A stretch of 64,000 nucleotides of DNA, taken from positions 11,023-75,022 of IMG/VR virus record IMGVR_UViG_3300032236_000765. The stretch is one strand, 5' to 3'. A program made the position numbers and the translations under genes. Origin of the DNA: a virus. Numbering within the stretch: the stretch's first letter is position 1; every line of letters begins with the position of its first letter. Under the pieces are notes generated by a model. It was not told the DNA's origin. It saw only the letters and a list, made by a program, of their open reading frames with translations, and searched no databases. Below, one piece after another: positions 855 to 12,571 of the stretch.

Positions 855-945
855 TGGCGGAAGCGGTGAGATTCGAACTCACGGTACCCTTCCAGGTACG
901 TCGCATTTCAAGTGCGGTGCCATAAACCAACTCGACCACGCTTCC
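855..945 (-). tRNA. tRNA-Ser(TGA)
   Basis: Cloverleaf with long variable arm, anticodon loop CT-TGA-AA, GTTCGAATC, encoded CCA. Confidence 0.92.
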
Positions 946-955
946 ATATAAATAT

Positions 956-1456
956 TTATGAAACTAGTTTGGTAACAGATTTTTTCTGTCTATACTCTCG
1001 GTCATAGTCTCTTCCTTTACCTCTATTTTTGCTCTTAAAGGTAGGTAATTGAGCATCACAGTTGCAACAGACTAATCTAAAGTTTTCAATTCTATTATCT
1101 GTACTGTCACCTGAAATATGATCACACACTAACGGTACAGGTTCACCCATCCATTCAGTAATACCACATCGACTACATGCATTACCGGTAGTTTCAATTA
1201 AATATGCTCTAGCATATCGTCTAGCAACTACTTCGCAATACTGACCCAATTTACCATTTTCAACTATGTCTTTTCTACGAGAAGAAATCTTGTCTGCATC
1301 ATGCTTTCCCTTATTCCAAGTCACGTTACCTTTTTGTGCACCAGCTTTCGGTGAACGCTTGTGTGTTATTCTATTTGGGTTATCCTTACAACTCATTTGA
1401 TGAGCAGTTAAAGATCCTTTATTTTTTATTTCTCTATTACAGTATACACAATTCAT
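956..1456 (-). CDS. HNH homing endonuclease with N-terminal Zn finger
   Basis: CxxC...DHISGDSTDNRIENFRLVCCNC HNH motif; free-standing between tRNAs. Confidence 0.85.
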   Translation of the reverse strand: MNCVYCNREIKNKGSLTAHQMSCKDNPNRITHKRSPKAGAQKGNVTWNKGKHDADKISSRRKDIVENGKLGQYCEVVARRYARAYLIETTGNACSRCGITEWMGEPVPLVCDHISGDSTDNRIENFRLVCCNCDAQLPTFKSKNRGKGRDYDREYRQKKSVTKLVS

Positions 1457-1527
1457 AGTAATGACTCCTCATTACTATTTATGCTTTATCGCAGAAATTC
1501 ACAGAATAAATGCAATAAGTCAAGAAT

Positions 1528-1602
1528 TGGTGCGCCCGGGAGGATTTGAACCTCCGACCCTCGCGTTATCAGCACGATGCTCTTCCCCTGAGCTACAAGC
1601 GC
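1528..1602 (-). tRNA. tRNA-Ile(GAT)
   Basis: Anticodon arm TCGTG-CTGATAA-CGCGA, T-loop GTTCAAATC, CCA. Confidence 0.92.
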
Positions 1603-1609
1603 ATGAGAT

Positions 1610-1694
1610 TGGTGGGGCATCCCGGGATCGAACCAGGCGTGTCATAAGACGGCGGATTTACAGTCCGCTGCATCACCGTTGATGCTTCTACCCC
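1610..1694 (-). tRNA. tRNA-Tyr(GTA)
   Basis: GCGGA-CTGTAAA-TCCGC, long variable arm, CCA. Confidence 0.9.
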
Positions 1695-1702
1695 GTTAAT
1701 CT

Positions 1703-1909
1703 TTACTTAAACTTGTTGAACCACCCATCTGCAAACTTCTGAACAACTTCGTCTGCATCAAAATAATGATCCTTGTTAAGAATTGCATCCTGAACATCAA
1801 GGACATCATCTTCATCCAAACCGATCTCTCGCAGATAATTTAGATATATGGCAAGTCCGTCGTCATGTGGATTCTTCTTAGCGAAGTTTACGTGAATAAC
1901 TTGTCCCAT
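1703..1909 (-). CDS. Hypothetical protein (68 aa)
   Basis: ORF with AAGGA SD, between tRNAs. Confidence 0.6.
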   Translation of the reverse strand: MGQVIHVNFAKKNPHDDGLAIYLNYLREIGLDEDDVLDVQDAILNKDHYFDADEVVQKFADGWFNKFK

Positions 1910-1936
1910 TGATGATGTCCTTTTTGTTCGGGTTAA

Positions 1937-2119
1937 TTACGGTTGTACAGTATGAGTACCGGTGTCACGGACACTTCCGTTACCGACACTACGAGGTTCG
2001 ACTACATTATCAGCCGCAGTCGTATTATCCATGGCAGGTGCAGCAGGAGTAGGCTTTTGGCTACATGCAGCAAGAGCAAGTACGCTAGCTAGGCTAGCAA
2101 GTGTGATAATCTTCATCAT
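1937..2119 (-). CDS. Small lipoprotein
   Basis: Signal peptide with lipobox LAAC; AAGGAG SD. Confidence 0.7.
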   Translation of the reverse strand: MMKIITLASLASVLALAACSQKPTPAAPAMDNTTAADNVVEPRSVGNGSVRDTGTHTVQP

Positions 2120-2144
2120 TTAGTTTCTCCTTTGTAAATGAACT

Positions 2145-2221
2145 TGGTACACCCGACGTGTGTCGATCCCGTTCCTCCGCCTTGAAAGGGCAGTGATCTA
2201 GCCATCGTAATCTATGGGTGC
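2145..2221 (-). tRNA. tRNA-Glu(TTC)
   Basis: CTGCC-CTTTCAA-GGCGG; atypical T-loop ATCGACA; CCA. Confidence 0.82.
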
Positions 2222-2227
2222 GTATAT

Positions 2228-2311
2228 TGGTGCGGGCAGTCGGACTCGAACCGACACGGAATACTCCGAGGGATTTTAAATCCCTTGCGTCTACCATTTC
2301 GCCATGCCCGC
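2228..2311 (-). tRNA. tRNA-Leu(TAA)
   Basis: AGGGA-TTTAAAA-TCCCT, variable arm, CCA. Confidence 0.92.
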
Positions 2312-2331
2312 ATAACAAACTTCATGTATGT

Positions 2332-2360
2332 AATATACTAAAGCTACAAACGAATGTCAA
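2332..2360 (-). promoter_or_regulatory. sigma70-type promoter inside tRNA array
   Basis: TTGACA-17 nt-TATATT. Confidence 0.7.
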
Positions 2361-2383
2361 CCGAATTTTTTAAAAAACTCAGA

Positions 2384-2457
2384 TGGCACCAGTGCAGGGA
2401 GTTGAACCCCGGCTTGCGGTTTTGGAGACCGTCGTGCTACCGTAACACTTCACTGGT
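2384..2457 (-). tRNA. tRNA-Trp(CCA)
   Basis: ACGGT-CTCCAAA-ACCGC, CCA end. Confidence 0.9.
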
Positions 2458-2458
2458 A

Positions 2459-2854
2459 TTATTCGTCGTCAAACTCAGCAGGAACAGGAAGATCGATTAG
2501 ATCGTGTTCACGATCAAGATACTTCATGTCAATATGAATCGGGTCCATTTCCTTGAGCGACTCTACCACATCATATGGGTCTAGAGGACCGCATGTATAG
2601 ACATCCAACTGTACCATTGCAGGTTCGTCCTCATCCCAGATGTGCATCACGATGTGACTAGTTTCGATAATTGTAGCACATGTAAGACCACGATTACCTT
2701 CCATTTCGCTATAGACAGCATAGGGTCCCATAAGGATCTTCATACCAATGCGCTCAATCAGCGCGGGCATCCACTCTTTGGATACCTTATCCGGACAAAC
2801 CAGAGGATTCCTTACCTCGGCACGGACAATAAGATGTTTGTGAAATAGAGCCAA
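2459..2854 (-). CDS. speD: S-adenosylmethionine decarboxylase proenzyme-like (class 1b)
   Basis: HLIV...GLTCATIIETSHIVMHIWDE...QLDVYTCG signature. Start reassigned to TTG 2854 because the track start lies inside tRNA-Val. Confidence 0.8.
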   Translation of the reverse strand: MALFHKHLIVRAEVRNPLVCPDKVSKEWMPALIERIGMKILMGPYAVYSEMEGNRGLTCATIIETSHIVMHIWDEDEPAMVQLDVYTCGPLDPYDVVESLKEMDPIHIDMKYLDREHDLIDLPVPAEFDDE

Positions 2855-2933
2855 CTCATAAATTCCCTTTGTTAAAAGCCGACATAAGAGTCGGATCATA
2901 TATTTATCATATGACCCGACTCCTGTTGAAAAA

Positions 2934-3008
2934 TGGTACTCGGGGCCAGGATCGAACTGGCGACCTTCGCTGTGTAAAAGCGTTGCGCTACCGCTGCGCC
3001 ACCCGAGC
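2934..3008 (-). tRNA. tRNA-Val(TAC)
   Basis: ACGCT-TTTACAC-AGCGA, GTTCGATC, CCA. Confidence 0.9.
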
Positions 3009-3518
3009 ATTATTTTTATATTCTCTCAGATATGCATTACGCTTAGTATGCTTTTTATAGCGATTACCTTTGCCTGCATTACCGAAAGTTTCAGTTTGAG
3101 TGTGACAATTAGGACAAAGCAGTCTAAGATTGCTCAAATCGTTATTATCACTATTACCGTCTATGTGATCTAATTGTAGACTAAGCGGCTTGTTATTCCA
3201 AGTACTTTCTTGTCCACATTCAGAACATTTATCTCCTACTTTTTCTTTAAGATATCTCTTAAAATTTCCTCCCAATCCTTGTTCAATGCGAGGAATTGAA
3301 ATGTATTCCCAAGTGTATTTAGATGAACAATCAACTGAACAAAACTTATTTTTAGTTCCTGCACTCGTGCGAAACTCTATTCCGCAGTACATGCATTCAC
3401 ACAACGGTTTTTTTGTTCGTGAGACTGAATATCTGCCTTCCGGACGATGAACACTCTTATGTCCATTCAACTTTCTGACTGAATCAAACTCTTTACCGCA
3501 TTCACATTTATACATCAT
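2988..3518 (-). CDS. HNH homing endonuclease; last codons overlap tRNA-Val 5' end
   Basis: Zn fingers plus LQLDHIDGNSDNNDLSNLRLLCPNCH; TATAAATA at 3539-3546 upstream. Confidence 0.88.
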   Translation of the reverse strand: MMYKCECGKEFDSVRKLNGHKSVHRPEGRYSVSRTKKPLCECMYCGIEFRTSAGTKNKFCSVDCSSKYTWEYISIPRIEQGLGGNFKRYLKEKVGDKCSECGQESTWNNKPLSLQLDHIDGNSDNNDLSNLRLLCPNCHTQTETFGNAGKGNRYKKHTKRNAYLREYKNNARVAQR

Positions 3519-3561
3519 AAGTTCCTTTTGCTCAACTGTATTTATACCAGTTGCACAAAAA

Positions 3562-3587
3562 GCACTCTTTACCTGAGCTAACCGGGC
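3562..3587 (-). pseudogene. Truncated tRNA 5' fragment (acceptor strand + D-arm)
   Basis: GCCCGGT-TA-GCTC-AGGTAAA-GAGT then breaks off just upstream of the HNH gene. Confidence 0.6.
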
Positions 3588-3593
3588 ATAAAA

Positions 3594-3670
3594 TGGTCGG
3601 AGTACTAGGATTCGAACCTAGGACCCTCTGCTCCCAAAGCAGATGCGCTACCAGACTGCGCTATACTCCG
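3594..3670 (-). tRNA. tRNA-Pro(TGG)
   Basis: CGGAGTA acceptor, TCTGC-TTTGGGA-GCAGA, CCA. Confidence 0.93.
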
Positions 3671-3678
3671 TCATATGT

Positions 3679-3752
3679 TGGTGGAGATGAAGGGAATCGA
3701 ACCCTTAAGTGCGCCTTGCAAAGGCGCCAGTTTACCGTTAGCTTACATCCCC
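3679..3752 (-). tRNA. tRNA-Ala(TGC)
   Basis: GCGCC-TTTGCAA-GGCGC; G3:U70 pair; CCA. Confidence 0.92.
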
Positions 3753-3800
3753 GAAAACTTTATTATACTTATCACCTTCTTGTACTAGACAATTATATTT

Positions 3801-3877
3801 TGGCGTCCCCAGAGGGACTTGAACCCCCGACCCACAGATTAGAAGTCTGTTGCTCTATCCAACTGAGCTATGGAGAC
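3801..3877 (-). tRNA. tRNA-Arg(TCT)
   Basis: ACAGA-CTTCTAA-TCTGT, CCA. Confidence 0.93.
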
Positions 3878-3946
3878 ATTACTTTCTGAATATAGCTATG
3901 AATAAAAAAGAAAGCAAGAGTTTTGGGTGACCCTTGCCTTCAATCC

Positions 3947-4339
3947 TTACAATTCTGCTTTAGTCACAACTTCTACGTTATCAACCGGAACAGATACCGG
4001 TGTGGTAATTTGACTTGCTTGCGCCTTCAAATCAGAAGTATGCGCAACCACAGCAGATTTAAATTTGATCAAGTCTTCTTCAGCAGACTTGATAGCTGTA
4101 TTTGCAGCATCAATAGCTTGTTGATGGAGATCGCGTGATCTAGCAAGCGCATCCTGCAAGTCTGCTTTAAGCTTGTTTACTGTTGCGTTGCCTACCAAAG
4201 CTGCTGCCTTAGCTTGCTCAAAAATAGTTTTTACATCTGATACAATCTCTTGCTCAAGTTGCACAAACTTTTGTCCTACCTGTTCTACTTGTACTACTTC
4301 GTCTATGAACATTTTCTTAATAGTTTCTAGAAACCCCAT
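3947..4339 (-). CDS. Hypothetical coiled-coil protein
   Basis: AAGGAG SD; upstream ATAAATA; Ala/Gln-rich helical sequence. Confidence 0.7.
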   Translation of the reverse strand: MGFLETIKKMFIDEVVQVEQVGQKFVQLEQEIVSDVKTIFEQAKAAALVGNATVNKLKADLQDALARSRDLHQQAIDAANTAIKSAEEDLIKFKSAVVAHTSDLKAQASQITTPVSVPVDNVEVVTKAEL

Positions 4340-4386
4340 ACGGTTCTCCTTTGTCTGTATGTGATAATATTATTTATCAACTGAAC

Positions 4387-4462
4387 TGGTGCTCTAAGCG
4401 AGAATCGAACTCACTATCTCCGGGTTACAAATCCGGCGCATCGCCAGCAATGCTTTTAGAGC
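4387..4462 (-). tRNA. tRNA-Thr(TGT)
   Basis: CCGGA-TTTGTAA-CCCGG, CCA. Confidence 0.88.
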
Positions 4463-4468
4463 AATAAT

Positions 4469-4544
4469 TGGCTCCCCAGGTTCGATTCGAACGAACGACA
4501 TTTCGGTTAACAGCCGAACGCAACTACCACTGTGCTACTGGGGA
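4469..4544 (-). tRNA. tRNA-Asn(GTT)
   Basis: TTCGG-CTGTTAA-CCGAA, GCCA end. Confidence 0.9.
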
Positions 4545-4597
4545 ATAAAATCATTATCGATGATATTTAATGTTCGAAAAAGAGTCGGATTATTTTC

Positions 4598-5158
4598 CTA
4601 ATTAAGGTCAATAATCCGACTATGCTTAGGAACACCTGTGAGCAAGTATTCCATCTGATCTGCGAGAATGTGACGATTCTGCAAGATCAAGTTTTCGAAG
4701 TGATTAGGTTCATACGGAACATAGAGAAGTTCCATACCTGCTTGTCTCAAAGTCTTGCAACCCTTTTTCTGATTGCAATCAAAGCAAGCTGTGACTACGT
4801 TAGTCCATTCATCAAGACCGCCGTGGAATCTAGAAATGATATGGTCTCTGCTCAACTTTGAATGTCCAAAGTGACCACCACAGTAAGCACAGATATTACG
4901 ATCACGTGCAAACAATGTTCTATTGGTCAACACGACACGGTTGTGTCGCGTGAAATCAAAGCCGGATCCCCGAACAGCAATGATGCTGGGTGTTTCAAGA
5001 TAGCTTTGCCGTCCGTCTTTTTGAATCCCCCCGCGATATTTAGCGATGACATCACCTAGGGTCCAGACAACTAAGTTTTTAGCATGATAGCTAATTGCTT
5101 CGTCATTGGTAATCCATGATCTTGGAGTACCCGCAACGTCTAAGGCTAATACCGCCAT
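4598..5158 (-). CDS. HNH endonuclease (McrA-like family)
   Basis: LFARDRNICAYCG...DHII...GG...WTNVVTACFDCNQKKG. Confidence 0.88.
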   Translation of the reverse strand: MAVLALDVAGTPRSWITNDEAISYHAKNLVVWTLGDVIAKYRGGIQKDGRQSYLETPSIIAVRGSGFDFTRHNRVVLTNRTLFARDRNICAYCGGHFGHSKLSRDHIISRFHGGLDEWTNVVTACFDCNQKKGCKTLRQAGMELLYVPYEPNHFENLILQNRHILADQMEYLLTGVPKHSRIIDLN

Positions 5159-5282
5159 AGTTTACTCCTATTTCTATTCATATTTAGACTCTAAAACATT
5201 ATACATTAGAAATGCTCTTTGTGCATTGGGTAATGTATAAATACAGAATCATCCTTGACTAATATAGTAAAGGATTCAAGAT

Positions 5283-5376
5283 TGGTAGTCCCGCCCGGAT
5301 TCGAACCGAGATCGTGCGCTAATCTGGCGCTTACACGAGGTATAAGCTCGTCGCTCTACCGTTGAGCTACAGGACC
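5283..5376 (-). tRNA. tRNA-Ile(TAT) with long variable arm
   Basis: ACGAG-CTTATAC-CTCGT; ~24-nt variable region; GTTCGAATC; ACCA. Confidence 0.82.
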
Positions 5377-5387
5377 GTAAATTTTAT

Positions 5388-5461
5388 TGGTGCCCTATGA
5401 CAGAATCGAACTGCCGCTCACTGATTACGAAACAGTTGTTCTACCATTTAACTAATCATGG
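5388..5461 (-). pseudogene. Degenerate tRNA-Thr(CGT)
   Basis: D, anticodon (TT-CGT-AA) and T arms plus CCA present; 5' acceptor strand CCATGAT mispairs with ATAGGGC at 3 of 7 positions. Confidence 0.7.
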
Positions 5462-5482
5462 TTCAATATAATTGATGCGAAA

Positions 5483-5559
5483 TGGTGGGTTATCTGGGAA
5501 TCGAACCCAGTCCATAATACGATTAAAAGTCGTATGCTCAGCCGGAGAGCCTATAACCC
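5483..5559 (-). tRNA. tRNA-Lys(TTT)
   Basis: TACGA-CTTTTAA-TCGTA; short D-loop; CCA. Confidence 0.85.
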
Positions 5560-5566
5560 GTATAAT

Positions 5567-5650
5567 TGGTGCCCCAAGCCGGACTCGAACCAGCACGCCT
5601 CGCGGCAGTAGATTTTGAGTCTACCGCGTCTACCATTCCACCATTGGGGC
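5567..5650 (-). tRNA. tRNA-Leu(CAA)
   Basis: GTAGA-CTCAAAA-TCTAC, variable arm, CCA. Confidence 0.93.
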
Positions 5651-5655
5651 ATTAA

Positions 5656-5829
5656 CTAGAATAAAGGGTTTAGAACGAATTTTCCAATTGGTTCATTGTC
5701 GAACAAAAACGTCACTGTGATTTGATCGGGATTTCCACCGAACAAATTATCAGGAAGTTGTTCAAGAGTGATCGTCAATTTTTCTTTCAATGCTGTCTTT
5801 AGCATTTCGTCGAATGTAGCTTGGTCCAT
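5656..5829 (-). CDS. Small hypothetical protein (57 aa, MDQATFDEML...)
   Basis: Manual ORF with AGGAG SD, below track cutoff. Confidence 0.6.
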   Translation of the reverse strand: MDQATFDEMLKTALKEKLTITLEQLPDNLFGGNPDQITVTFLFDNEPIGKFVLNPLF

Positions 5830-5873
5830 TGTATTCTCCTATGAGAGTATTCACTTGTTACTCTTGATAATAA

Positions 5874-5958
5874 TGGTGCGGATGAAGGGACTCGAACCCC
5901 CACACCTTTCGGTACTGGTACCTAAAACCAGGGCGTCTACCAATTCCGCCACATCCGC
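5874..5958 (-). tRNA. tRNA-Leu(TAG)
   Basis: CTGGT-TTTAGGT-ACCAG, variable arm, CCA. Confidence 0.93.
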
Positions 5959-5963
5959 ATGTT

Positions 5964-6087
5964 CTGATATTCTTAGGAAGAGAGTTTGGAAGAATTGCAC
6001 TTCCCTAGGATACTGACCTATCCTCTTTGCACTGGTCAGAGTGCAGAGTTCGCCACTTAACAGGAACTCCCTACCTAAGAATATCAG
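5964..6087 (-). ncRNA. Putative tRNA-like structured RNA with kissing loops
   Basis: Perfect 14-bp closing stem; internal hairpins with complementary loops CTGACC/GGTCAG; T-arm-like GGAAG-TGCAATT-CTTCC. Confidence 0.65.
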
Positions 6088-6188
6088 GTATAGATTTAGA
6101 ATCTAAACTGCGACGGTGAGAACCGGCTTCGTCTTTAATCTTGTGCACCAGGAAACGACACAAGAACCGCTAGACCTAATATTTTCTA

Positions 6189-6266
6189 ACAATGTCAAAG
6201 AACAAGAGCGTCTTTCGTCGCTCTCTCTATGTTCTAAATATAGCGCAGGTCCAATTCAGAGTCAAC
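6189..6266 (-). promoter_or_regulatory. sigma70 promoter followed by boxB-like hairpin and boxA-like element
   Basis: TTGACT-17-TATATT; GAGCG-ACGAAAGA-CGCTC hairpin; TGTTCTTTGACATTGT. Confidence 0.6.
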
Positions 6267-6301
6267 CGAAAAACGACCTAGATGCGAAATATTTTTTAAT
6301 A

Positions 6302-6376
<75 letters not shown>

Positions 6377-6380
6377 AAAA

Positions 6381-6486
6381 TACGGTTTTTATCTACTTCA
6401 CGAAGACTCGGGCGAATAGCGTATGCAACTCAATCATGCCTTACTCGCTTGCTCTTGGTAGCCCGGGCGTAACCGAAAACCGGTAA
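6381..6486 (-). ncRNA. Putative long irregular hairpin RNA
   Basis: Nested stems CGGTTTT/AAAACCG, CGGGC/GCCCG, AGCG/CGCT, GCA/TGC; GC-rich island directly 5' of tRNA-Phe. Confidence 0.4.
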
Positions 6487-6588
6487 ATTGCTAGCCTAAT
6501 ACAAGACTAGCAAACTGAAAATATTTATATAGGTATGCCAGCGAAAGATAATCTTTCATCCTTAATATGAGTAAGGATCTTTCGCTGG

Positions 6589-6777
6589 CTATATACCGAT
6601 GATCTTTACTATGAGATTGAAAGGCCAAACATGTTCCCACAGAAAATGCTCTAGTGGATAGCTGATTGTTATACCTATCCAGAACCTATAATCAGTGATT
6701 AGATTAGTACAATGATTGTAACATGTGGTCAAGAAGCCTGTTCTACTATAATGGTAGTGTGGTTCATTATTTTTCAT
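6589..6777 (-). CDS. Small hypothetical, possibly membrane protein (MKNNEPHYHY...)
   Basis: Start reassigned to ATG 6777 (track start is inside tRNA-Val); followed by 13-bp hairpin 6537-6588. Confidence 0.55.
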   Translation of the reverse strand: MKNNEPHYHYSRTGFLTTCYNHCTNLITDYRFWIGITISYPLEHFLWEHVWPFNLIVKIIGI

Positions 6778-6798
6778 GTTTTCTCTCTTTTTAATAGA

Positions 6799-6870
6799 TG
6801 GCGGCCCTGATGATTTTTCTCTCGTTGACACACTACCCATGATTGGAAGATGGTGGTGCGAGACAGGGCC
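6799..6870 (-). ncRNA. CCA-terminated tRNA-sized RNA without a cloverleaf
   Basis: GGCCCTG...CAGGGCC-GCCA perfect acceptor stem; no D- or T-loop consensus. Confidence 0.55.
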
Positions 6871-6878
6871 ATAAACTT

Positions 6879-6953
6879 TGGTGCGCGATGCAGGAGTTGA
6901 ACCTACCACCTCTTCCATGTCAAGGAAGCGTTCTACCGATGAACTAATCGCGC
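6879..6953 (-). tRNA. tRNA-Val(GAC)
   Basis: CTTCC-TTGACAT-GGAAG, CCA. Confidence 0.92.
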
Positions 6954-6959
6954 ATTGTC

Positions 6960-7035
6960 TGGTACTAGGTATTGGATTCGAACCAATCCACTGAGTTCCA
7001 CAAACTCATGTGCTGACCGCTAACACTAACCTAGC
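6960..7035 (-). tRNA. tRNA-His(GTG), no G-1, A73 discriminator
   Basis: TGAGT-TTGTGGA-ACTCA; position -1 is T; ends ACCA. Confidence 0.88.
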
Positions 7036-7102
7036 ATGAATTGCGGTAAAGGATATGGATCAAGCCTTTGAGGCTTTGTTACCGACACTATATATTAAGT
7101 GT

Positions 7103-7573
7103 TTAGTTCTTCACATACTTGTTGTATGCAGCGATCCAATCAGTTGAGATTTCTTTCTGAGCAGTTGCCATATCGATCTGACCTGAACAAATCATCTTGT
7201 GTAACTTGTTTTCTAATGCATCTTTCAAGTGTGCATTATAAGGAGATGATGTGTATGACTGTGGCCAGAGATTCTTGACATCATTTGCACCGCCTAGTTC
7301 AAGTGAGATCAAGTGATCTATCTCAAACTTGTCAGACTTAGGATCGATCTTGTATTCAGCAAAAACTTGCTTCTTCACAGATTCAGGTACGTTACGGACC
7401 TTCTTGCCCTGTGCGTCTGTGCCGCTGGTGTAATTCGGTACACATACTACTGCTTTTGTTGCAGCAGGATTGACTACACCAGGGGTCAACACAGGATCAG
7501 GCTTCTGAGGAATGTCAGCAGCATATGCAGAAACAGAAATTGATAGTAAAGCTAATGTTAATAATTTTTTCAT
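7103..7573 (-). CDS. Exported protein with HNH-like motif
   Basis: Sec signal peptide (MKKLLTLALLSISVSAYA); EIDHLISLELGGAN...NLWPQ. Confidence 0.7.
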   Translation of the reverse strand: MKKLLTLALLSISVSAYAADIPQKPDPVLTPGVVNPAATKAVVCVPNYTSGTDAQGKKVRNVPESVKKQVFAEYKIDPKSDKFEIDHLISLELGGANDVKNLWPQSYTSSPYNAHLKDALENKLHKMICSGQIDMATAQKEISTDWIAAYNKYVKN

Positions 7574-7599
7574 GATTACATCCTTTACTATATTTATCT

Positions 7600-7677
7600 T
7601 GGCAGCTCCTGAGGGATTCGAACCCCCGACTTCTACGTTCGAAGCGTAGCACTCTAAATCCGCTGAGTTAAGGAGCC
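7600..7677 (-). tRNA. tRNA-Arg(TCG)
   Basis: CTACG-CTTCGAA-CGTAG, GCCA. Confidence 0.88.
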
Positions 7678-7680
7678 TAA

Positions 7681-7754
7681 TGGCTGGGGAACTAGGACTC
7701 GAACCTAGAATAACGGTACCAAAAACCGCTGTGTTACCATTACACCATTCCCCA
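7681..7754 (-). tRNA. tRNA-Gln(TTG)
   Basis: GCGGT-TTTTGGT-ACCGT; U1:A72, GCCA. Confidence 0.92.
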
Positions 7755-7760
7755 ATGAAA

Positions 7761-7836
7761 TGGTGCCGCTTGCAGGATTCGAACCTGCCACCTACTGATT
7801 ACTAATCAGTTGCTCTACCAAATGAGCTAAAGCGGC
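7761..7836 (-). tRNA. tRNA-Thr(AGT)
   Basis: Canonical Thr body (GCCGCTT...AAGCGGC-ACCA); ACTGA-TTAGTAA-TCAGT. Confidence 0.88.
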
Positions 7837-7911
7837 ATTAAAACATATGTGTATTTATTTCGTGAAAAATTTTAATTAAGAATAAATAAGATATAACAAG
7901 GGATTATTAAA

Positions 7912-8511
7912 ATGAGAAGCAGAATATACAACAGAATTCATCGTGTTCAAAACATGATTGTTATGATTGAAAATGAAGTGAAGACGATCAAGAGAATGCA
8001 ACGTCGTTTACTTGAATCTGTTAAACAAGTTCCTCCCGAGGAAGATCGAAGAACATCAGATGTTGAATTTATCATAGCACAGATGCCTTTAATTTTAGGA
8101 GGTTCATTACTCTTAGGTGCTTTGGAATATCTGTTAGATGTCGTTCAAAGAGGAGGAATTCATCACAGTGCAGCATTCTGGGCAGTTCACTCTTTTCTAG
8201 GTGAACTTATTGCATTGCCAATTATAGTACTTTTCATTTTTGTGGAAGAAAGTGAAGGGAGCGAAGGAAATGCTCGCTTAAGTGAAAATGCTAACAAAAT
8301 TAAAAAGTTTGCTGATGATCATGAAATGGATCCAAAGAAAAACAACATAGGAGACCTCATTATTGCTCTCCTCAATGATACTAAAAACGGAAATTATACG
8401 GTTGTCCAAGGAAAAAATATGTTTTCCAGGATTATACAGAATCTTAAACATAGCCATGATCCTAGAGTCCAAGCTGCAATAAACAAGGAAAAGCGAAAGA
8501 TAGCAGCATAA
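7912..8511 (+). CDS. Hypothetical protein, coiled-coil leader plus hydrophobic segments
   Basis: N-terminus paralogous to next ORF and ends in LLE; ATAAATA upstream. Confidence 0.7.
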   Translation: MRSRIYNRIHRVQNMIVMIENEVKTIKRMQRRLLESVKQVPPEEDRRTSDVEFIIAQMPLILGGSLLLGALEYLLDVVQRGGIHHSAAFWAVHSFLGELIALPIIVLFIFVEESEGSEGNARLSENANKIKKFADDHEMDPKKNNIGDLIIALLNDTKNGNYTVVQGKNMFSRIIQNLKHSHDPRVQAAINKEKRKIAA

Positions 8512-8536
8512 AACATATTATATAAGAAAATATAAA

Positions 8537-9082
8537 ATGAATCAGATGCCGCATAACAAACTTCGTAAAATCCAAAACAAGATCACAATGCTTGAATATG
8601 AAATAAGAACAATCAAGCAAGTGCAGCAACAATTGTATGAGGCAAAAAAAGTTGGAAATGCATTAAAAGTTAATCGTCCTAGAGTAACACCTAGAAAAAT
8701 ATTAATGTTACTTTCTGCTATAGTGTCGGCTGCTTCCATGGTAGGTGCTGCTACCGCAGTTGTTCCAGGTTTAGCTATTTTTTCAAATTTATTTGTTAGA
8801 ATTTTTATGAGTATTGCTATTAATGTTCCAGCACTCAATGAGCTTAGAAATGAAGTACAACATAATAAAAAGCTCAAAGATATTATTGATAAAATAGATC
8901 CTAATGCTTTGAAAATGAATATGTTAGATTTCTTAACCAAATTCCAAGAAGCAATTGATGCTAAAACACTAACCCCAGAAGAAATAGAGTATTTAAAAGT
9001 GGCAATAGGAAATTCCAAAGATTTCCAAAATGCTATCAAGCAAGCAGATAAACAGACCAAGCAACAATCAACTGCACAATGA
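8537..9082 (+). CDS. Hypothetical protein, paralogous leader plus hydrophobic hairpin
   Basis: KLRKIQNKITMLEYEIRTIKQVQQQLYE vs RIHRVQNMIVMIENEVKTIKRMQRRLLE. Confidence 0.7.
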   Translation: MNQMPHNKLRKIQNKITMLEYEIRTIKQVQQQLYEAKKVGNALKVNRPRVTPRKILMLLSAIVSAASMVGAATAVVPGLAIFSNLFVRIFMSIAINVPALNELRNEVQHNKKLKDIIDKIDPNALKMNMLDFLTKFQEAIDAKTLTPEEIEYLKVAIGNSKDFQNAIKQADKQTKQQSTAQ

Positions 9083-9097
9083 TCATAAAATAAATAG

Positions 9098-9272
9098 ATA
9101 GCCTTTTGTTTTGACAAGCGAGGCTATGTTATCCGGCATTTCGGACTTGCCCGCTTGTGAGGAATATTCCTCACTGCTAGATTTTACTCTCTGCGTTATC
9201 GCCGCAGATTTCATCCCTAACACCGCCCCTTCTTTTTTTATAGTGCTTTGCAGGCTCGTTCCGACATGCACT
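9098..9272 (-). ncRNA. Unidentified multi-branched structured RNA
   Basis: Stems GCATGTCGGA/TCCGAAATGC, GCCTGC/GCGGGC, TCTGCG/CGCAGA, GTGAGG/CCTCAC, ATAGCCT/AGGCTAT. Confidence 0.6.
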
Positions 9273-9281
9273 TCTAAATGG

Positions 9282-9311
9282 AAAACCCCGAGAGTCTTTT
9301 GATTCCCAGGG
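9282..9311 (-). terminator. Intrinsic terminator of putative attenuator
   Basis: CCCTGGGAATC-AAAA-GACTCTCGGGG-TTTT. Confidence 0.65.
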
Positions 9312-9338
9312 CCTAAATAAACTAGTTATGATCTATGT

Positions 9339-9476
9339 TTACTTTTGCCCGGGCTCCAATGGTTGAATAAATTTGCCGCGGTTTGTTGGATATGCTGCCA
9401 ACATTAATACCAAAGAGGTTTCTATTCCCCAATTCGTGGTATCATGTCTCAGCAATGTCGAACAATTAGTAATCAT
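9339..9476 (-). CDS. Putative attenuator leader peptide (45 aa)
   Basis: MITNCSTLLRHDTTNWGIETSLVLMLAAYPTNRGKFIQPLEPGQK*; its last codons and stop form the 5' arm of a hairpin that overlaps the terminator. Confidence 0.55.
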   Translation of the reverse strand: MITNCSTLLRHDTTNWGIETSLVLMLAAYPTNRGKFIQPLEPGQK

Positions 9477-9531
9477 AACAAGTTTATTTAGTCCTGCGAA
9501 TAATTAATCTCTTTTTCTCATCATGTTTTTC

Positions 9532-9560
9532 ATTCTATATGCAGTAGAAAAGAATGTCAA
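9532..9560 (-). promoter_or_regulatory. sigma70-type promoter upstream of the leader
   Basis: TTGACA-17 nt-TAGAAT. Confidence 0.75.
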
Positions 9561-9585
9561 GAACTTTTTTCCTATAAATAAAATC

Positions 9586-10146
9586 ATGGACTTCGACGCA
9601 TTCTCTCATGGACAAATCCAAAGCAAGTTGTGGCTTTGCAAAGAACTTGAACGATTCATATACGCGAACATCAAGATCGTCATACTAGGAAGCTGGTATA
9701 ACGTTCTTGCGTTTATGCTTCTTACACGAAACGCAGACCGATATCAACATATTTTGGGTGTAGACCTTGATCCGGAAGCAAAAGAGATTGCTGATAAAAT
9801 CACTAATGCCTGGCGTATTGGTAAAGATTACAAGGTCGAGAACAAGATAGCTGATGCAAACCTTGAAAATTTGGATGGCTACGACCTTGTAATCAATTGC
9901 TCACCTGAGCATATGGAAGGTAATGATTGGTTTGAGAATCTTGAATACGGTACGATGGTGTGTATTCAATCTAGCAACGTGCAGACTAAAGATGATGATG
10001 TTTGGAAATGTGTCAATCCAAACGAATCATTAGAGGATTTGGCAATAAAATACCCGTTATCAAAGTATCTTTACTCTGGGGAGAAAGAGATCAGATACAG
10101 TGATGATAACGGGTATAAACGTTTTATGATAATCGGAATCAAGTAA
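9586..10146 (+). CDS. Class I SAM-dependent methyltransferase-like protein
   Basis: IVILGSWY...GVDLD...ADAN...DLVINCSPEH Rossmann motifs; start reassigned to ATG 5 nt after TATAAATA (9573-9580). Confidence 0.7.
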   Translation: MDFDAFSHGQIQSKLWLCKELERFIYANIKIVILGSWYNVLAFMLLTRNADRYQHILGVDLDPEAKEIADKITNAWRIGKDYKVENKIADANLENLDGYDLVINCSPEHMEGNDWFENLEYGTMVCIQSSNVQTKDDDVWKCVNPNESLEDLAIKYPLSKYLYSGEKEIRYSDDNGYKRFMIIGIK

Positions 10147-10660
10147 CTTTGATTATAGATGCAATAACAGCAGCAATGTTAGCAATATCTTGCACCTGTG
10201 CATCAGTATAATCTTTGCTCTTTATCATCTCTACTAGTGCAAATGCTCGACTGTGCTGAAGCACTATAGCAGCAGCAAATGCATACATAGCAGTCTTGCC
10301 TGTCGCATCCTCTATGATAGGTTCAAACTTTTCTAGCTTATATGGAGGATTTCCTACAGATGCTTTATACGTCGCATCCAGATATCCTAGATACACGGTG
10401 TCTATGGCGATGCCGGTTACAGCTTGAGACACTAGTTCACGTTCTGATCTGCCGAACAGTGGGCCATTCATTGAGATTTCAAATGCGAGTTCCGAATTAC
10501 CGGATGCAGTTGCTGCTGCTAATGCACAGGCGTGTGCATCAATCTCATCTAATTGATGCTGCGTCATCACAATCTGAAGATTTTTTTCTAGGTAGGATAG
10601 ATGCTCAGGTAGGCTATTCTTAACAGCATCTATCCAATTGGTAGTTCCAAATTTATTCAT
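10139..10660 (-). CDS. AhpD-like / carboxymuconolactone decarboxylase fold protein, no CxxC
   Basis: IDAVKNSLPEH...CALAAATASGN...QVQDIANIAAVI resembles AhpD. Confidence 0.6.
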   Translation of the reverse strand: MNKFGTTNWIDAVKNSLPEHLSYLEKNLQIVMTQHQLDEIDAHACALAAATASGNSELAFEISMNGPLFGRSERELVSQAVTGIAIDTVYLGYLDATYKASVGNPPYKLEKFEPIIEDATGKTAMYAFAAAIVLQHSRAFALVEMIKSKDYTDAQVQDIANIAAVIASIIKVT

Positions 10661-10707
10661 TTTGTTTTCTCTATACTAATATATGTATGTAACAGATGAA
10701 ATACAAC

Positions 10708-10878
10708 TCAAGATTTTTTTACTGCCACGTAACGATTCTTTTGGTAATCCTTGCGAATATCGTACAGGCTTTTGATGACCTGTATAGTTTTGAGGCTATC
10801 ACCTTCTGTACGGCTGATGCCTTCAATATCGCGGATCTTGTCGATAAGATCAGCCGGAGTTTTCGCAGTGATGATCAT
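10708..10878 (-). CDS. Small hypothetical early protein (56 aa)
   Basis: Manual ORF MIITAKTPADLIDKIRDIE..., GAGGAG SD. Confidence 0.55.
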   Translation of the reverse strand: MIITAKTPADLIDKIRDIEGISRTEGDSLKTIQVIKSLYDIRKDYQKNRYVAVKKS

Positions 10879-10896
10879 ACGTAGTCTCCTCGAATA

Positions 10897-11244
10897 CTAT
10901 GCAGCGAGAGTGTTGCAGGCGCATTGGCCCCGCCGGATCATCATCTGAAGACCAGCTTGAGTCTGGGGCAGACCGCGCTCCTTCAGCCACTTCTTGATGT
11001 GCGGCAGAAGATAGCCCTTGGTCTCGGCGATGCGAAGCGGAGCCATTCCCGCATCCTGCATTGCAAAATATTCTTCGACGGTGAAGTTCTTGATCAGGAA
11101 AGTGATGAACGTAGCCTTACCGCCACCGCGCTTGGAAAAGTTCGCAACGAACTTGCGCTCTGCATGAGGGGTAGACCAGCCTTGCGGGGCATACGAGAGC
11201 CAACCGTTAGAGTCGATGAGAGTTTCTTTCGTGAACTTAGTCAT
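10897..11244 (-). CDS. Hypothetical early protein
   Basis: GGAG SD, own sigma70 promoter, GC-richer codons. Confidence 0.7.
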   Translation of the reverse strand: MTKFTKETLIDSNGWLSYAPQGWSTPHAERKFVANFSKRGGGKATFITFLIKNFTVEEYFAMQDAGMAPLRIAETKGYLLPHIKKWLKERGLPQTQAGLQMMIRRGQCACNTLAA

Positions 11245-11279
11245 GTGTATCTCCGTTCGCTCGTTTCTGTCTATGATTC

Positions 11280-11308
11280 AATATAGCAAAATGGGTAACC
11301 GAAGTCAA
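11280..11308 (-). promoter_or_regulatory. Phage early promoter (repeated motif)
   Basis: TTGACTTCGGTTACCCATTTTGCTATATT. Confidence 0.8.
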
Positions 11309-11312
11309 GCCT

Positions 11313-11498
11313 TTATTTCGGATAAATCACATATTGTTCATCGATATAGATGGTGTTACCGTCTTCATCGCGGATGACGATATCCTGAATGTACTCCTCA
11401 GGGTCATCCGTGCGGAACATGAAAGTTCCAGTGACGAGTTCGTCCTCGCCCCGAGCGTTGACAACGTAACCCTGAACAATTTCGCCGACCTTGAACAT
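11313..11498 (-). CDS. Hypothetical early protein (61 aa)
   Basis: ORF downstream of promoter 11530-11558. Confidence 0.65.
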   Translation of the reverse strand: MFKVGEIVQGYVVNARGEDELVTGTFMFRTDDPEEYIQDIVIRDEDGNTIYIDEQYVIYPK

Positions 11499-11529
11499 GA
11501 TGTCTCTCTCGCTCGCTGCTTACATTGTT

Positions 11530-11558
11530 AATATAGCGGAATGGGTAACTCATGTCAA
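11530..11558 (-). promoter_or_regulatory. Phage early promoter (repeated motif)
   Basis: TTGACATGAGTTACCCATTCCGCTATATT. Confidence 0.8.
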
Positions 11559-12571
11559 CCTTTTTGTACCAAAAAAAGCGGTCCGTCGATAAATTTATTT
11601 CTATCCTGATTCATCATTCCAGCTTGCATTTCTTTGATCATCTCAGGAGTCAGATGTCTAGCTCTCATCTGTGAATCATGAAAGAATATATGAACTTCTA
11701 CAAAAGCATCACCCTCTAACCGTTGGATAGCTATCATACGATGACGCCCTTCATGTCCTGTGACCCTAGCAGGTTGGATGAAGTCTCCGTCTTCCCACTG
11801 AGCAGGAATCTTAACAATCAAGAAAGGGGCGCCCAGCCCGCCACCATTTTGTAGATGGTCGATGATATCATTTATCGTTTTTTGATTAGGATGTTTAATT
11901 GGTGCAGCTAATTGGAAGAATGTCGAAGGACGCATCAGCACACGCAATCCTAGGTAGTCTACGTTTTCATTGTTTGGAGTCTGTCCCCATCCATTCGCGT
12001 TGTCTACCTTGTATTCATCTAGCTCATTTTCTCTAGATGTAACAGCGAGTTTGTTCTTTATTCCTTCATCAACTGGACTCTTGCTGATAGGAACTTTCTT
12101 ACGATTGGTGAGAAAATAGGTATTGAACCAAGCTGTGCTTTCAACATCCCATTTACTCATAAACGTATTATTCCGGCGTTCCATGCCCTCTGGATTATGA
12201 TGTATAGCATCATAATCTTTCTCTAACAATTGCCAGGGCATCTTAGTGAATAATTCTGCAGGATCTTTGATTTGGACACCATATTTTCTAGCAATCATCA
12301 TGGCATCACTGTCTGTGTTAATGACTAGTATTCGTGCACCTGGTCTGACATCCATCAATGTGCCTTCATCACTTACCCATTCAGGCATCTCACCATAACA
12401 CCAGTCTACCCAATCACTCGTATAACCATTCTTGACTTTTATAGCAGTGCTAGTCCATAACGCAGCATCAGGCTTCAGTGATGCTTCATTAGTCTTTACA
12501 GGACGTGGAACATATAACTGCGGACCTAAACTCACATTTTTGTCCTCAGCTACTAAATCAGATGCTCTCAT
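11555..12571 (-). CDS. Two-domain protein, C-terminal ParB/Srx-like domain; putative head protein
   Basis: VTGHEGRHRMIAI motif; leader MRASDLVAE. Confidence 0.6.
   Translation of the reverse strand: MRASDLVAEDKNVSLGPQLYVPRPVKTNEASLKPDAALWTSTAIKVKNGYTSDWVDWCYGEMPEWVSDEGTLMDVRPGARILVINTDSDAMMIARKYGVQIKDPAELFTKMPWQLLEKDYDAIHHNPEGMERRNNTFMSKWDVESTAWFNTYFLTNRKKVPISKSPVDEGIKNKLAVTSRENELDEYKVDNANGWGQTPNNENVDYLGLRVLMRPSTFFQLAAPIKHPNQKTINDIIDHLQNGGGLGAPFLIVKIPAQWEDGDFIQPARVTGHEGRHRMIAIQRLEGDAFVEVHIFFHDSQMRARHLTPEMIKEMQAGMMNQDRNKFIDGPLFLVQKG

Follow-up and report, generated by a model that had tools for sequence, protein, structure and literature searches.

For fifty years textbooks have described leader-peptide attenuation, which, to our knowledge, has always involved one or a few amino acids and always the control of enzymes. 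The enterobacterial examples are trpL, hisL, pheL and leuL, together with the multivalent thrL and ilvL (see also PMC1183508 and PMC3082878). Here we analyze a minus-strand element of a 64,000-nucleotide (nt) stretch of the virus record IMGVR_UViG_3300032236_000765 of IMG/VR (positions 11,023 to 75,022 of the record, below called the window), in which a 45-codon leader open reading frame (ORF) containing all 20 amino acids precedes a terminator, a structured RNA and, further on, a tRNA array. We consider it rather probable that this element is a ribosome-mediated transcription attenuator of the trp type, whose leader composition would make it a sensor of decoding in general and not of one amino acid.

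The phage element shares with the attenuators of amino acid operons a short leader ORF, an intrinsic terminator and an alternative helix that uses the 5' arm of the terminator. As in those operons, the position of the leading ribosome would select the helix; for the phage element this was modeled, with mixed outcomes. A CCGCGGC motif within the ORF and a segment upstream of it (segment 1) are predicted to be able to sequester the antiterminator arm, as segment 1 of trp does. On the other hand, unlike leaders of the trpL and hisL type, the phage leader has no run of codons for a single amino acid; each of the 20 occurs in it, as a rule once or a few times. It is also longer (45 codons, compared with 14-32), is viral, and is followed by tRNAs and a structured RNA instead of biosynthetic enzymes. 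Furthermore, its antiterminator 5' arm includes the stop codon and its overlap with the terminator is just 3-6 nt.

Another group of leaders senses translation inhibitors: PA5471.1 (armZ-mexXY of Pseudomonas), toiL-topAI of Escherichia coli, bmrB, vmlR and the erm type. Like the phage element, these read a general impairment of translation through where the ribosome stands on a short ORF, a position that is coupled to termination or RNA structure, but their trigger is a drug-bound ribosome at a particular motif, and the genes they control are for resistance instead of tRNAs. We know of no selection for a complete amino acid set in any of them. Papers related to this group are PMC6851288 and PMC13041342. 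T-box riboswitches work without an ORF, by direct binding of a single uncharged tRNA, and regulate aminoacyl-tRNA synthetase and amino acid genes; they resemble the phage element in having an RNA leader, a choice between terminator and antiterminator and a report of tRNA charging. The phage element differs from them in its ORF, and a search of positions 7000-12000 against Rfam 15 at E ≤ 1 gave no T-box match and no other known RNA family, only tRNAs and one weak chance match.

The closest parallel in biology is found in Anabaena sp. PCC 7120, whose trn operon (L-array) is a set of 23-26 supernumerary, horizontally mobile tRNA genes induced by impaired translation (PMC8421152; PMC10272220). The logic is the same, in that a tRNA array is turned on when translation is impaired. 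[quoted passage not shown] Control of trn is exerted at the promoter by a protein, whereas control in the phage would be exerted after initiation by an RNA/ribosome switch. A full-text literature search revealed neither leader-peptide or attenuator control of tRNA genes nor a leader defined by a complete amino acid set.

The phage element lies in a 503-nt gap between two plus-strand genes (8537-9082 and 9523/9586-10146), and its parts are listed below from the promoter onwards.

9560-9532, minus strand: sigma70-type promoter, TTGACA-17-TAGAAT, found by promoter scan with 11/12 consensus matches
9496-9482, minus strand: segment 1, CAGGACTAAATAAAC, the end of the 5' untranslated region (5' UTR), containing the TAAATA box and, 15 nt before the ATG, AGGA
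9490-9485, minus strand: TAAATA box read from the sequence, 6-8 nt before the ATG
9476-9339, minus strand: leader ORF, MITNCSTLLRHDTTNWGIETSLVLMLAAYPTNRGKFIQPLEPGQK, 45 codons plus TAA, with 20 amino acid types and 34 distinct codons
9381-9375, minus strand: CCGCGGC (Arg-Gly codons) inside the ORF, pairing with GCCCGG at the ORF end in the minimum-free-energy fold of the local RNA
9353-9333, minus strand: segment 2, the antiterminator 5' arm, CCCGGGCAAAAGTAAACATAG, made of the last five codons, the stop codon (9341-9339) and 6 nt beyond
9325-9305, minus strand: segment 3, the 3' arm of the stop-codon hairpin, CTAGTTTATTTAGGCCCTGGG, which runs into the terminator 5' arm
9311-9286, minus strand: intrinsic terminator, CCCTGGGAATC-AAAA-GACTCTCGGGG, an 11-bp stem followed by the T-run TTTT at 9285-9282
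9272-9098, minus strand: GC-richer, highly conserved structured RNA (fold z = -6.1 for the minus strand of the gap), starting 10 nt after the T-run

The promoter, the TAAATA box, the ORF, the hairpin and the terminator are thus present at the minus-strand positions given by the original prediction, which had been made from the letters of the window, and a recount returned the same 20 amino acids, 34 codons and use of all four Thr codons (ACT, ACA, ACC and ACG). The transcript likely starts about 48-55 nt upstream of the leader ATG. Given its start so close to the T-run, the structured RNA would be made only by read-through.

Eleven related viral contigs were recovered via the neighboring 207-residue protein. 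The gap DNA was 77-79% identical in contigs whose 207-residue protein was just 65% identical, indicating that the element is constrained. The invariant core of the downstream RNA, used as an exact pattern, gave 34 and then 38 viral contigs plus 62 metagenome contigs, mostly from freshwater or lakes. Further matches to the pattern in L050, L051 and L116 (L-numbers are labels of related loci or versions) were located inside coding regions and were discarded as chance. The element was found in 108 loci of uncultured freshwater giant phages, represented by 62 distinct upstream versions and 52 distinct peptides. In nearly all relatives a TTGACA promoter, in most cases preceded by a T-run, is present 43-83 nt before the leader ATG. 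The core pattern was not found in bacteria or archaea (one genome per species, 185,579 species), nor did a blastn search of 8500-10200 against 50,697 deposited phage records give any match, so that no isolate is available for experiments.

The leader ORF was open in all 62 distinct versions, with a length of 43-50 codons, and the other two frames had about three stops each. The distance from the ORF end to the conserved RNA was 63-82 nt, increased by about 45 nt where two extra hairpins are inserted. The ratio of nonsynonymous to synonymous polymorphism (pN/pS) was 0.67 in frame, compared with 0.85 and 0.97 in the shifted frames. An open frame with a drifting sequence fits a requirement for translation in which the sequence of the product is of little importance. 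The peptide had no Pfam match, and a word-based homology search of 5.8 billion proteins found only its own sequence.

All 20 amino acids were present in 45 of the 52 distinct peptides; the other seven have 19, six of them without Cys and one without Asp. By comparison, only 0.6-0.8% of the 45-47-residue pieces of window proteins contain all 20 (mean 15.5 types), and a single one of the 92 window ORFs of 40-55 amino acids does so. Since relatedness alone could explain complete sets, a tree-aware simulation was run on the peptide tree, with a rate fitted to each column and residues limited to those occurring in that column. In the simulation 13.7 ± 6.3 peptides were expected to be complete, and the highest number reached in any of the 1000 runs was 36, compared with the 45 of 52 observed (P<0.001). 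According to the alignment, completeness stays high despite drift because single-copy residues relocate rather than vanish: Trp has relocated in L001, L111 and L071, His in L065, and an internal Met occurs at many positions. The leaders of L047 and L014, which are nearly unalignable to the rest, also contain all 20, and the set stays complete without the last 3-4 codons. These comparisons indicate that the openness of the ORF and its complete amino acid set are both under selection.

Codon diversity in the leader was also high (34 distinct codons here, 31-39 in relatives). It had been cautioned in the original prediction that such diversity might partly reflect chance, a reservation that is not borne out by comparison with 45-codon samples from gene windows (mean 26.6; P(≥34) = 0.005). 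The leader samples 24 of the 27 tRNA species of the phage (null 17.8 ± 2.3, P = 0.003), and seven relatives behaved similarly. Codons readable by phage tRNAs were not clearly enriched in the leader, their share being 0.91 compared with 0.84 in the window, and 0.57-0.80 compared with 0.57-0.77 in relatives.

The clade of L033, L038, L055 and L112 has both a broken T-run (GGGTTAACC) and a leader without Cys (19/20), whereas in its sister L088 the T-run is unbroken and no amino acid is missing (alignment A3, columns 126-140). Both losses probably go back to one evolutionary event; its direction is that to be expected if a complete set is needed only as long as the terminator works. A link between missing leader Cys and missing tRNA-Cys was considered and rejected, as L038 encodes tRNA-Cys.

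The structures at the end of the ORF were analyzed in 53 aligned sequences. The terminator was paired in 92.7% of cells and four of its pairs were changed on both sides (CG 26 / UA 22; CG 25 / UA 25); its G-U pairs indicate that the structure belongs to the minus-strand RNA. The stop-codon helix AAGUAAAC:GUUUAUUU was paired in 91% of cells, and the changes in this hairpin were mostly from A-U to G-U, compatible only with the minus-strand RNA. Folding of the local attenuator RNA gave z = -3.5, and a terminator scan called the equivalent site in L022. The antiterminator arm at the ORF end includes CCCGGG and AAGTAAAC, and in L110, L049 and L059 the alignment revealed changes in segment 3 compensated in segment 2. 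Within the ORF, CGCGG is nearly invariant at the nucleotide level across relatives; in the modeled folds CCGCGGC can act as an internal competitor of the antiterminator arm.

A fixed-register antiterminator helix, CCCGGG:CCUGGG, was only 72% paired, with little covariation, and was replaced by a thermodynamic test applied to each sequence. The RNA was folded from about 90 nt upstream of the stop codon to the end of the terminator 3' arm; the T-run was left out as part of the presumed RNA-DNA hybrid. A ribosome at the stop codon was represented by a mask from -15 to +10 around it, and the probability of the bottom 4 bp of the terminator was taken as the readout. When the ORF end was free, the median of this probability was 0.14-0.17 (0.14 in the window), with values below 0.5 in 39 of the 53 sequences, and the mask at the stop codon raised it to a median of 0.96 (0.955 in the window). 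Shuffling the 41 nt around the stop codon also gave 0.96, the native value being below the shuffle median in 49 of 50 sequences; in the window, a shuffled ORF end lifted predicted terminator formation from 0.14 to 0.95. L047, which has different sequences in the same layout, gave 0.27 free and 0.81 masked, and L014 and L044 showed weaker effects. These results suggest that the ORF end destabilizes the terminator and that a ribosome at the stop codon would reverse this effect.

The position of the lead ribosome was then varied in a model in which the ribosome-binding region was taken as occupied. The window, L073 and L012 behaved as the original prediction had proposed: they read through with the lead ribosome at codon 12 to about 38, and terminated only once it had reached the last six or so codons. 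For L003, L033, L110 and L102, read-through was favored mainly by stalls at codons ~30-38, where the ribosome covers CGCGG. Modeled ribosomes at codons ~30-38 lowered terminator formation in 8/8 representatives. The completeness of the amino acid set, the destabilization of the terminator by the ORF end and its reversal by a modeled ribosome at the stop codon all support the leader-peptide attenuator with general sensing proposed in the original prediction; the short ORF and the stems, described there from a single sequence, are conserved in the relatives, as judged by the 62 open frames, the compensatory changes in the terminator and the position close to tRNA genes described below.

We infer from these data that the leader is translated, that termination occurs at the terminator and is conditional, and that stalls anywhere in the ORF are read out; segment 1 and the downstream RNA may have roles as well. 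Host RNA polymerase would start at the sigma70-type promoter and transcribe the 45-codon ORF, the last codons and stop of which would form the 5' arm of a hairpin whose 3' arm enters the G+C-rich base of the terminator. A ribosome that keeps pace and stands on the last codons or the stop would mask this arm, allowing the full terminator to form and transcription to end at about 9282-9285. If the ribosome lags for want of any aminoacyl-tRNA, the ORF end would pair with the terminator base and weaken the terminator, and the polymerase would continue into the conserved RNA and, in the relatives, straight into the tRNA genes. The outcome would be a negative feedback in which slower decoding yields more phage tRNA.

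The conserved RNA and its position relative to the tRNA genes were examined in the relatives. About 50 nt of its 5' part were invariant in 27 aligned versions, which had been selected by an exact 30-nt match to that 5' part. Its hairpins covary, GUCCG/CGGAC being replaced by GUCUG/CAGAC and CUGCG/CGCAG by UCAC/GUGA. A lone pair between N (CGAG-N-CUGC) and N' (GAA-N'-GGGCGG) was C-G in 10, G-C in 6 and U-A in 2 of 18 distinct versions, with 0 exceptions, a covariation that points to a tertiary contact in the folded RNA. The 3' domain of the RNA is replaced in the clade of L028 and L038, and is missing in L102, where tRNA-Gln lies 106 nt after the RNA start. Downstream sequence of 600 nt or more was available for 46 distinct versions, and 43 of these have a co-oriented tRNA within 700 nt of the conserved-RNA start (median 282 nt). 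The first tRNA is nearly always tRNA-Gln and the arrays of the relatives comprise 20-30 genes. No sigma70-like promoter was found between the terminator and the first tRNA in L022 or L038.

About a dozen relatives (L015, L025, L037, L040, L041, L044, L048, L053, L097, L104 and L113; alignment A3, columns 142-188) carry an insertion of about 45 nt, for example AGTAAGAGGCAAAAATCTCTTACAGTTAGGGTGAGAGACCTAAC, between the T-run and the conserved RNA. The insertion forms two small hairpins with compensatory changes in both stems.

One RNA library was matched, by a 162-nt contig that covers only 9223-9273 and represents the invariant RNA of a relative, and a second run of unknown kind gave the same match to the RNA of a relative. 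Since such contigs show neither ends nor strand, and DNA carry-over is possible, these matches do not bear on the leader.

The window is one of the three exceptions to the close spacing, its first tRNA lying 1437 nt after the conserved-RNA start. The features on both sides of the element are as follows.

9523-10146, plus strand: 207-amino-acid ORF listed from ATG 9523, whose first 21 codons (9523-9585) overlap the leader promoter on the other strand
9127-9098, minus strand: hairpin followed by a U-rich stretch, where the inserted gene pair ends; relatives have no such hairpin
7912-8511 and 8537-9082, plus strand: two paralogous genes of 199 and 181 amino acids, which only in this phage separate the element from the array
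855-7836, minus strand: tRNA array, 21 genes in the window (29 in the whole record, with 27 anticodon species)
953, 1476, 2901, 3539, 4371, 6522, 7591 and 7852, minus strand: ATAAATA boxes, the last of them (7852-7858) just before the first tRNA

Several observations weigh against the attenuator reading. In the window, two opposite-strand genes and a U-rich hairpin separate the element from the array. The original prediction had raised the two genes as a caveat; they are indeed present, but they are peculiar to this phage, since in 43 of the 46 relatives the element adjoins the first tRNA. In the window, the attenuator may have lost its coupling to the array through this insertion. It had also warned of internal promoters, and the array strand does carry eight promoter-like ATAAATA boxes within the array, which probably are late promoters, so that the array would not depend on the leader element alone. 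No Shine-Dalgarno sequence is found at normal spacing, the AGGA lying about 11-15 nt before the leader ATG, whereas phage genes that bear a Shine-Dalgarno-like motif have it 4-8 nt before the start. A pN/pS of 0.67 still denotes constraint on the peptide, in which YPTSIRGxF is conserved.

Further points of this kind concern the switch itself. The antiterminator and the terminator overlap by just 3-6 nt at the terminator base, in a register that varies between clades; the mutual exclusion of hairpin and terminator that had been claimed holds through this overlap but not over their whole length. The terminator wins even with a free ORF end in 14 of the 53 sequences. Equilibrium folds of the whole leader were dominated by a long-range helix between segments 1 and 3 and their outcomes differed between relatives, termination being high in most of these and low in the window whatever the ribosome position. 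Such folding was for these reasons not relied on as a model of the switch; co-transcriptional kinetics should favor local helices. Finally, where read-through arises only from codons ~30-38, as modeled for several relatives, the need for all 20 amino acids is unexplained.

The helix between segments 1 and 3 is also the basis of another explanation. Segment 1 and the start-codon region are complementary to segment 3, forming a 23-bp inverted repeat in the window, where the duplex of the 5' UTR and AUG with segment 3 was predicted at -33.6 kcal/mol, compared with -8.6 for shuffles. In the family the median was -18.0 kcal/mol, compared with -6.8 for shuffles, and the duplex was significant in 59 of the 62 versions. 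The element would in that case be a translation-coupled switch of different logic, in which segments 1 and 2 compete for segment 3 and initiation or promoter choice, not the speed at each codon, is reported. In agreement with this, a mask over the start region flipped the whole-leader model in L012, L033 and L073. Promoter choice would operate if the early sigma70 transcript contains segment 1 and a late transcript from the TAAATA box does not. In addition, RNase III might cut the duplex and so separate the tRNA precursor from the leader. ATAAATA is modestly enriched in the window (29 compared with 20.8 expected), most copies preceding gene starts on the strand of the gene; such boxes lie 20-30 nt upstream of many gene starts, a late-promoter-like spacing, and resemble the T4-type late promoter (TATAAATA class). 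The box in segment 1 might itself be a late promoter giving a nearly leaderless transcript. The earlier description of this box as late-type finds a parallel in the related ATAAATA before many genes, but the CTAAATA form of the leader is not enriched in the window (15 found, 14 expected) and lies just 8 nt from the ATG. We judge this explanation unlikely. The complementarity of segment 1 is absent in L014, L044 and L047, which nevertheless keep the ORF, the complete amino acid set and the antiterminator, and the compensation of segment 3 changes within segment 2 (L110, L049 and L059) is also at odds with it. Furthermore, a pure initiation sensor requires neither 45 codons nor 20 amino acids.

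The conserved ORF length, the YPTSIRGxF motif and a pN/pS below 1 would also suit an ordinary small early gene, encoding a 45-residue protein for, e.g., host takeover or anti-defense and followed by a leaky two-hairpin terminator and then an unrelated noncoding RNA gene. In the window, the fold of lowest energy contains both the stop-codon hairpin and the full terminator, and there are other promoter-like boxes in the array, as would be expected of such an arrangement. It is nonetheless quite improbable in our view, because it does not explain the retention of all 20 amino acids by relocation (P<0.001), the same property in the unalignable L047 and L014, the complementarity of the ORF end to the terminator base or the constant placement before tRNA arrays. 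A pN/pS of 0.67 is high for a folded protein, the peptide has no match in Pfam and only itself among the 5.8 billion proteins, and the conserved RNA lies within 10 nt of the T-run without a promoter of its own. A nascent-peptide arrest leader of the TnaC or SecM type, in which a C-terminal YPTSIRGxF ... PG stalls the ribosome on a ligand or state and not on tRNA supply, seems very unlikely. The conserved motif does lie in the last third of the ORF, Pro-Gly is frequent near the stop, and it is the modeled stalls at codons ~30-38 that most consistently favor read-through. However, CGCGG and CCNGG are conserved at the nucleotide level and in competing helices, so that RNA pairing can explain the conservation; the motif is not found in L047 and L014, and an arrest leader leaves the complete amino acid set unexplained.

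The general-sensing attenuator can be extended, tentatively, to a gauge of the whole tRNA supply, made possible by a leader that holds every amino acid and about 35-39 different codons. A shortage of any single charged tRNA would lead to read-through and more phage tRNA, and restored decoding to termination, resulting in a homeostasis responsive to host defense, with the invariant RNA as the second part of the device. The shortage could arise from starvation, from phage-induced decay of host tRNAs or from cleavage by host anticodon nucleases, although the link to the nucleases is speculation. The invariant RNA might, for instance, make the polymerase resistant to termination across the untranslated array.

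If the attenuator reading is true, the same mechanism that serves amino acid operons reports whole translation capacity in these phages, by means of an all-20 leader placed before viral tRNA genes. It would provide a testable answer to the question of when large phages express their tRNA arrays, and would also bear on how the arrays respond to depletion of host tRNA or to defenses that target tRNA. The element would in addition be a compact, portable genetic part that senses decoding speed. A complete amino acid set in about 45 codons next to a terminator is a signature that can be searched for before other translation-related operons.

The source record of the window is a 75-kb record of a myovirus, with tail sheath and tube genes; its estimated completeness of 22% implies a full genome of about 340 kb. 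The true start of the plus-strand 207-residue gene is probably ATG 9586, since its protein relatives align only from residues 15-24.

Two observations concern other RNA genes of the relatives. ARAGORN called a tRNA with anticodon CTA, labeled Pyl and in effect an amber suppressor, in L019 (1454-1528), L035 (718-792) and L033 (10800-10875), in each case a few kb ahead of the element. Such tRNAs could reflect TAG recoding in some members of the phage group; TAA is the stop codon of the leader ORF both in L033 and in L110, whose version is also that of L019 and L035. In L014, the most divergent relative, a transfer-messenger RNA gene with tag peptide ANTNFALAA was called at 11414-11864, and either it is carried by the phage or the contig includes host DNA.

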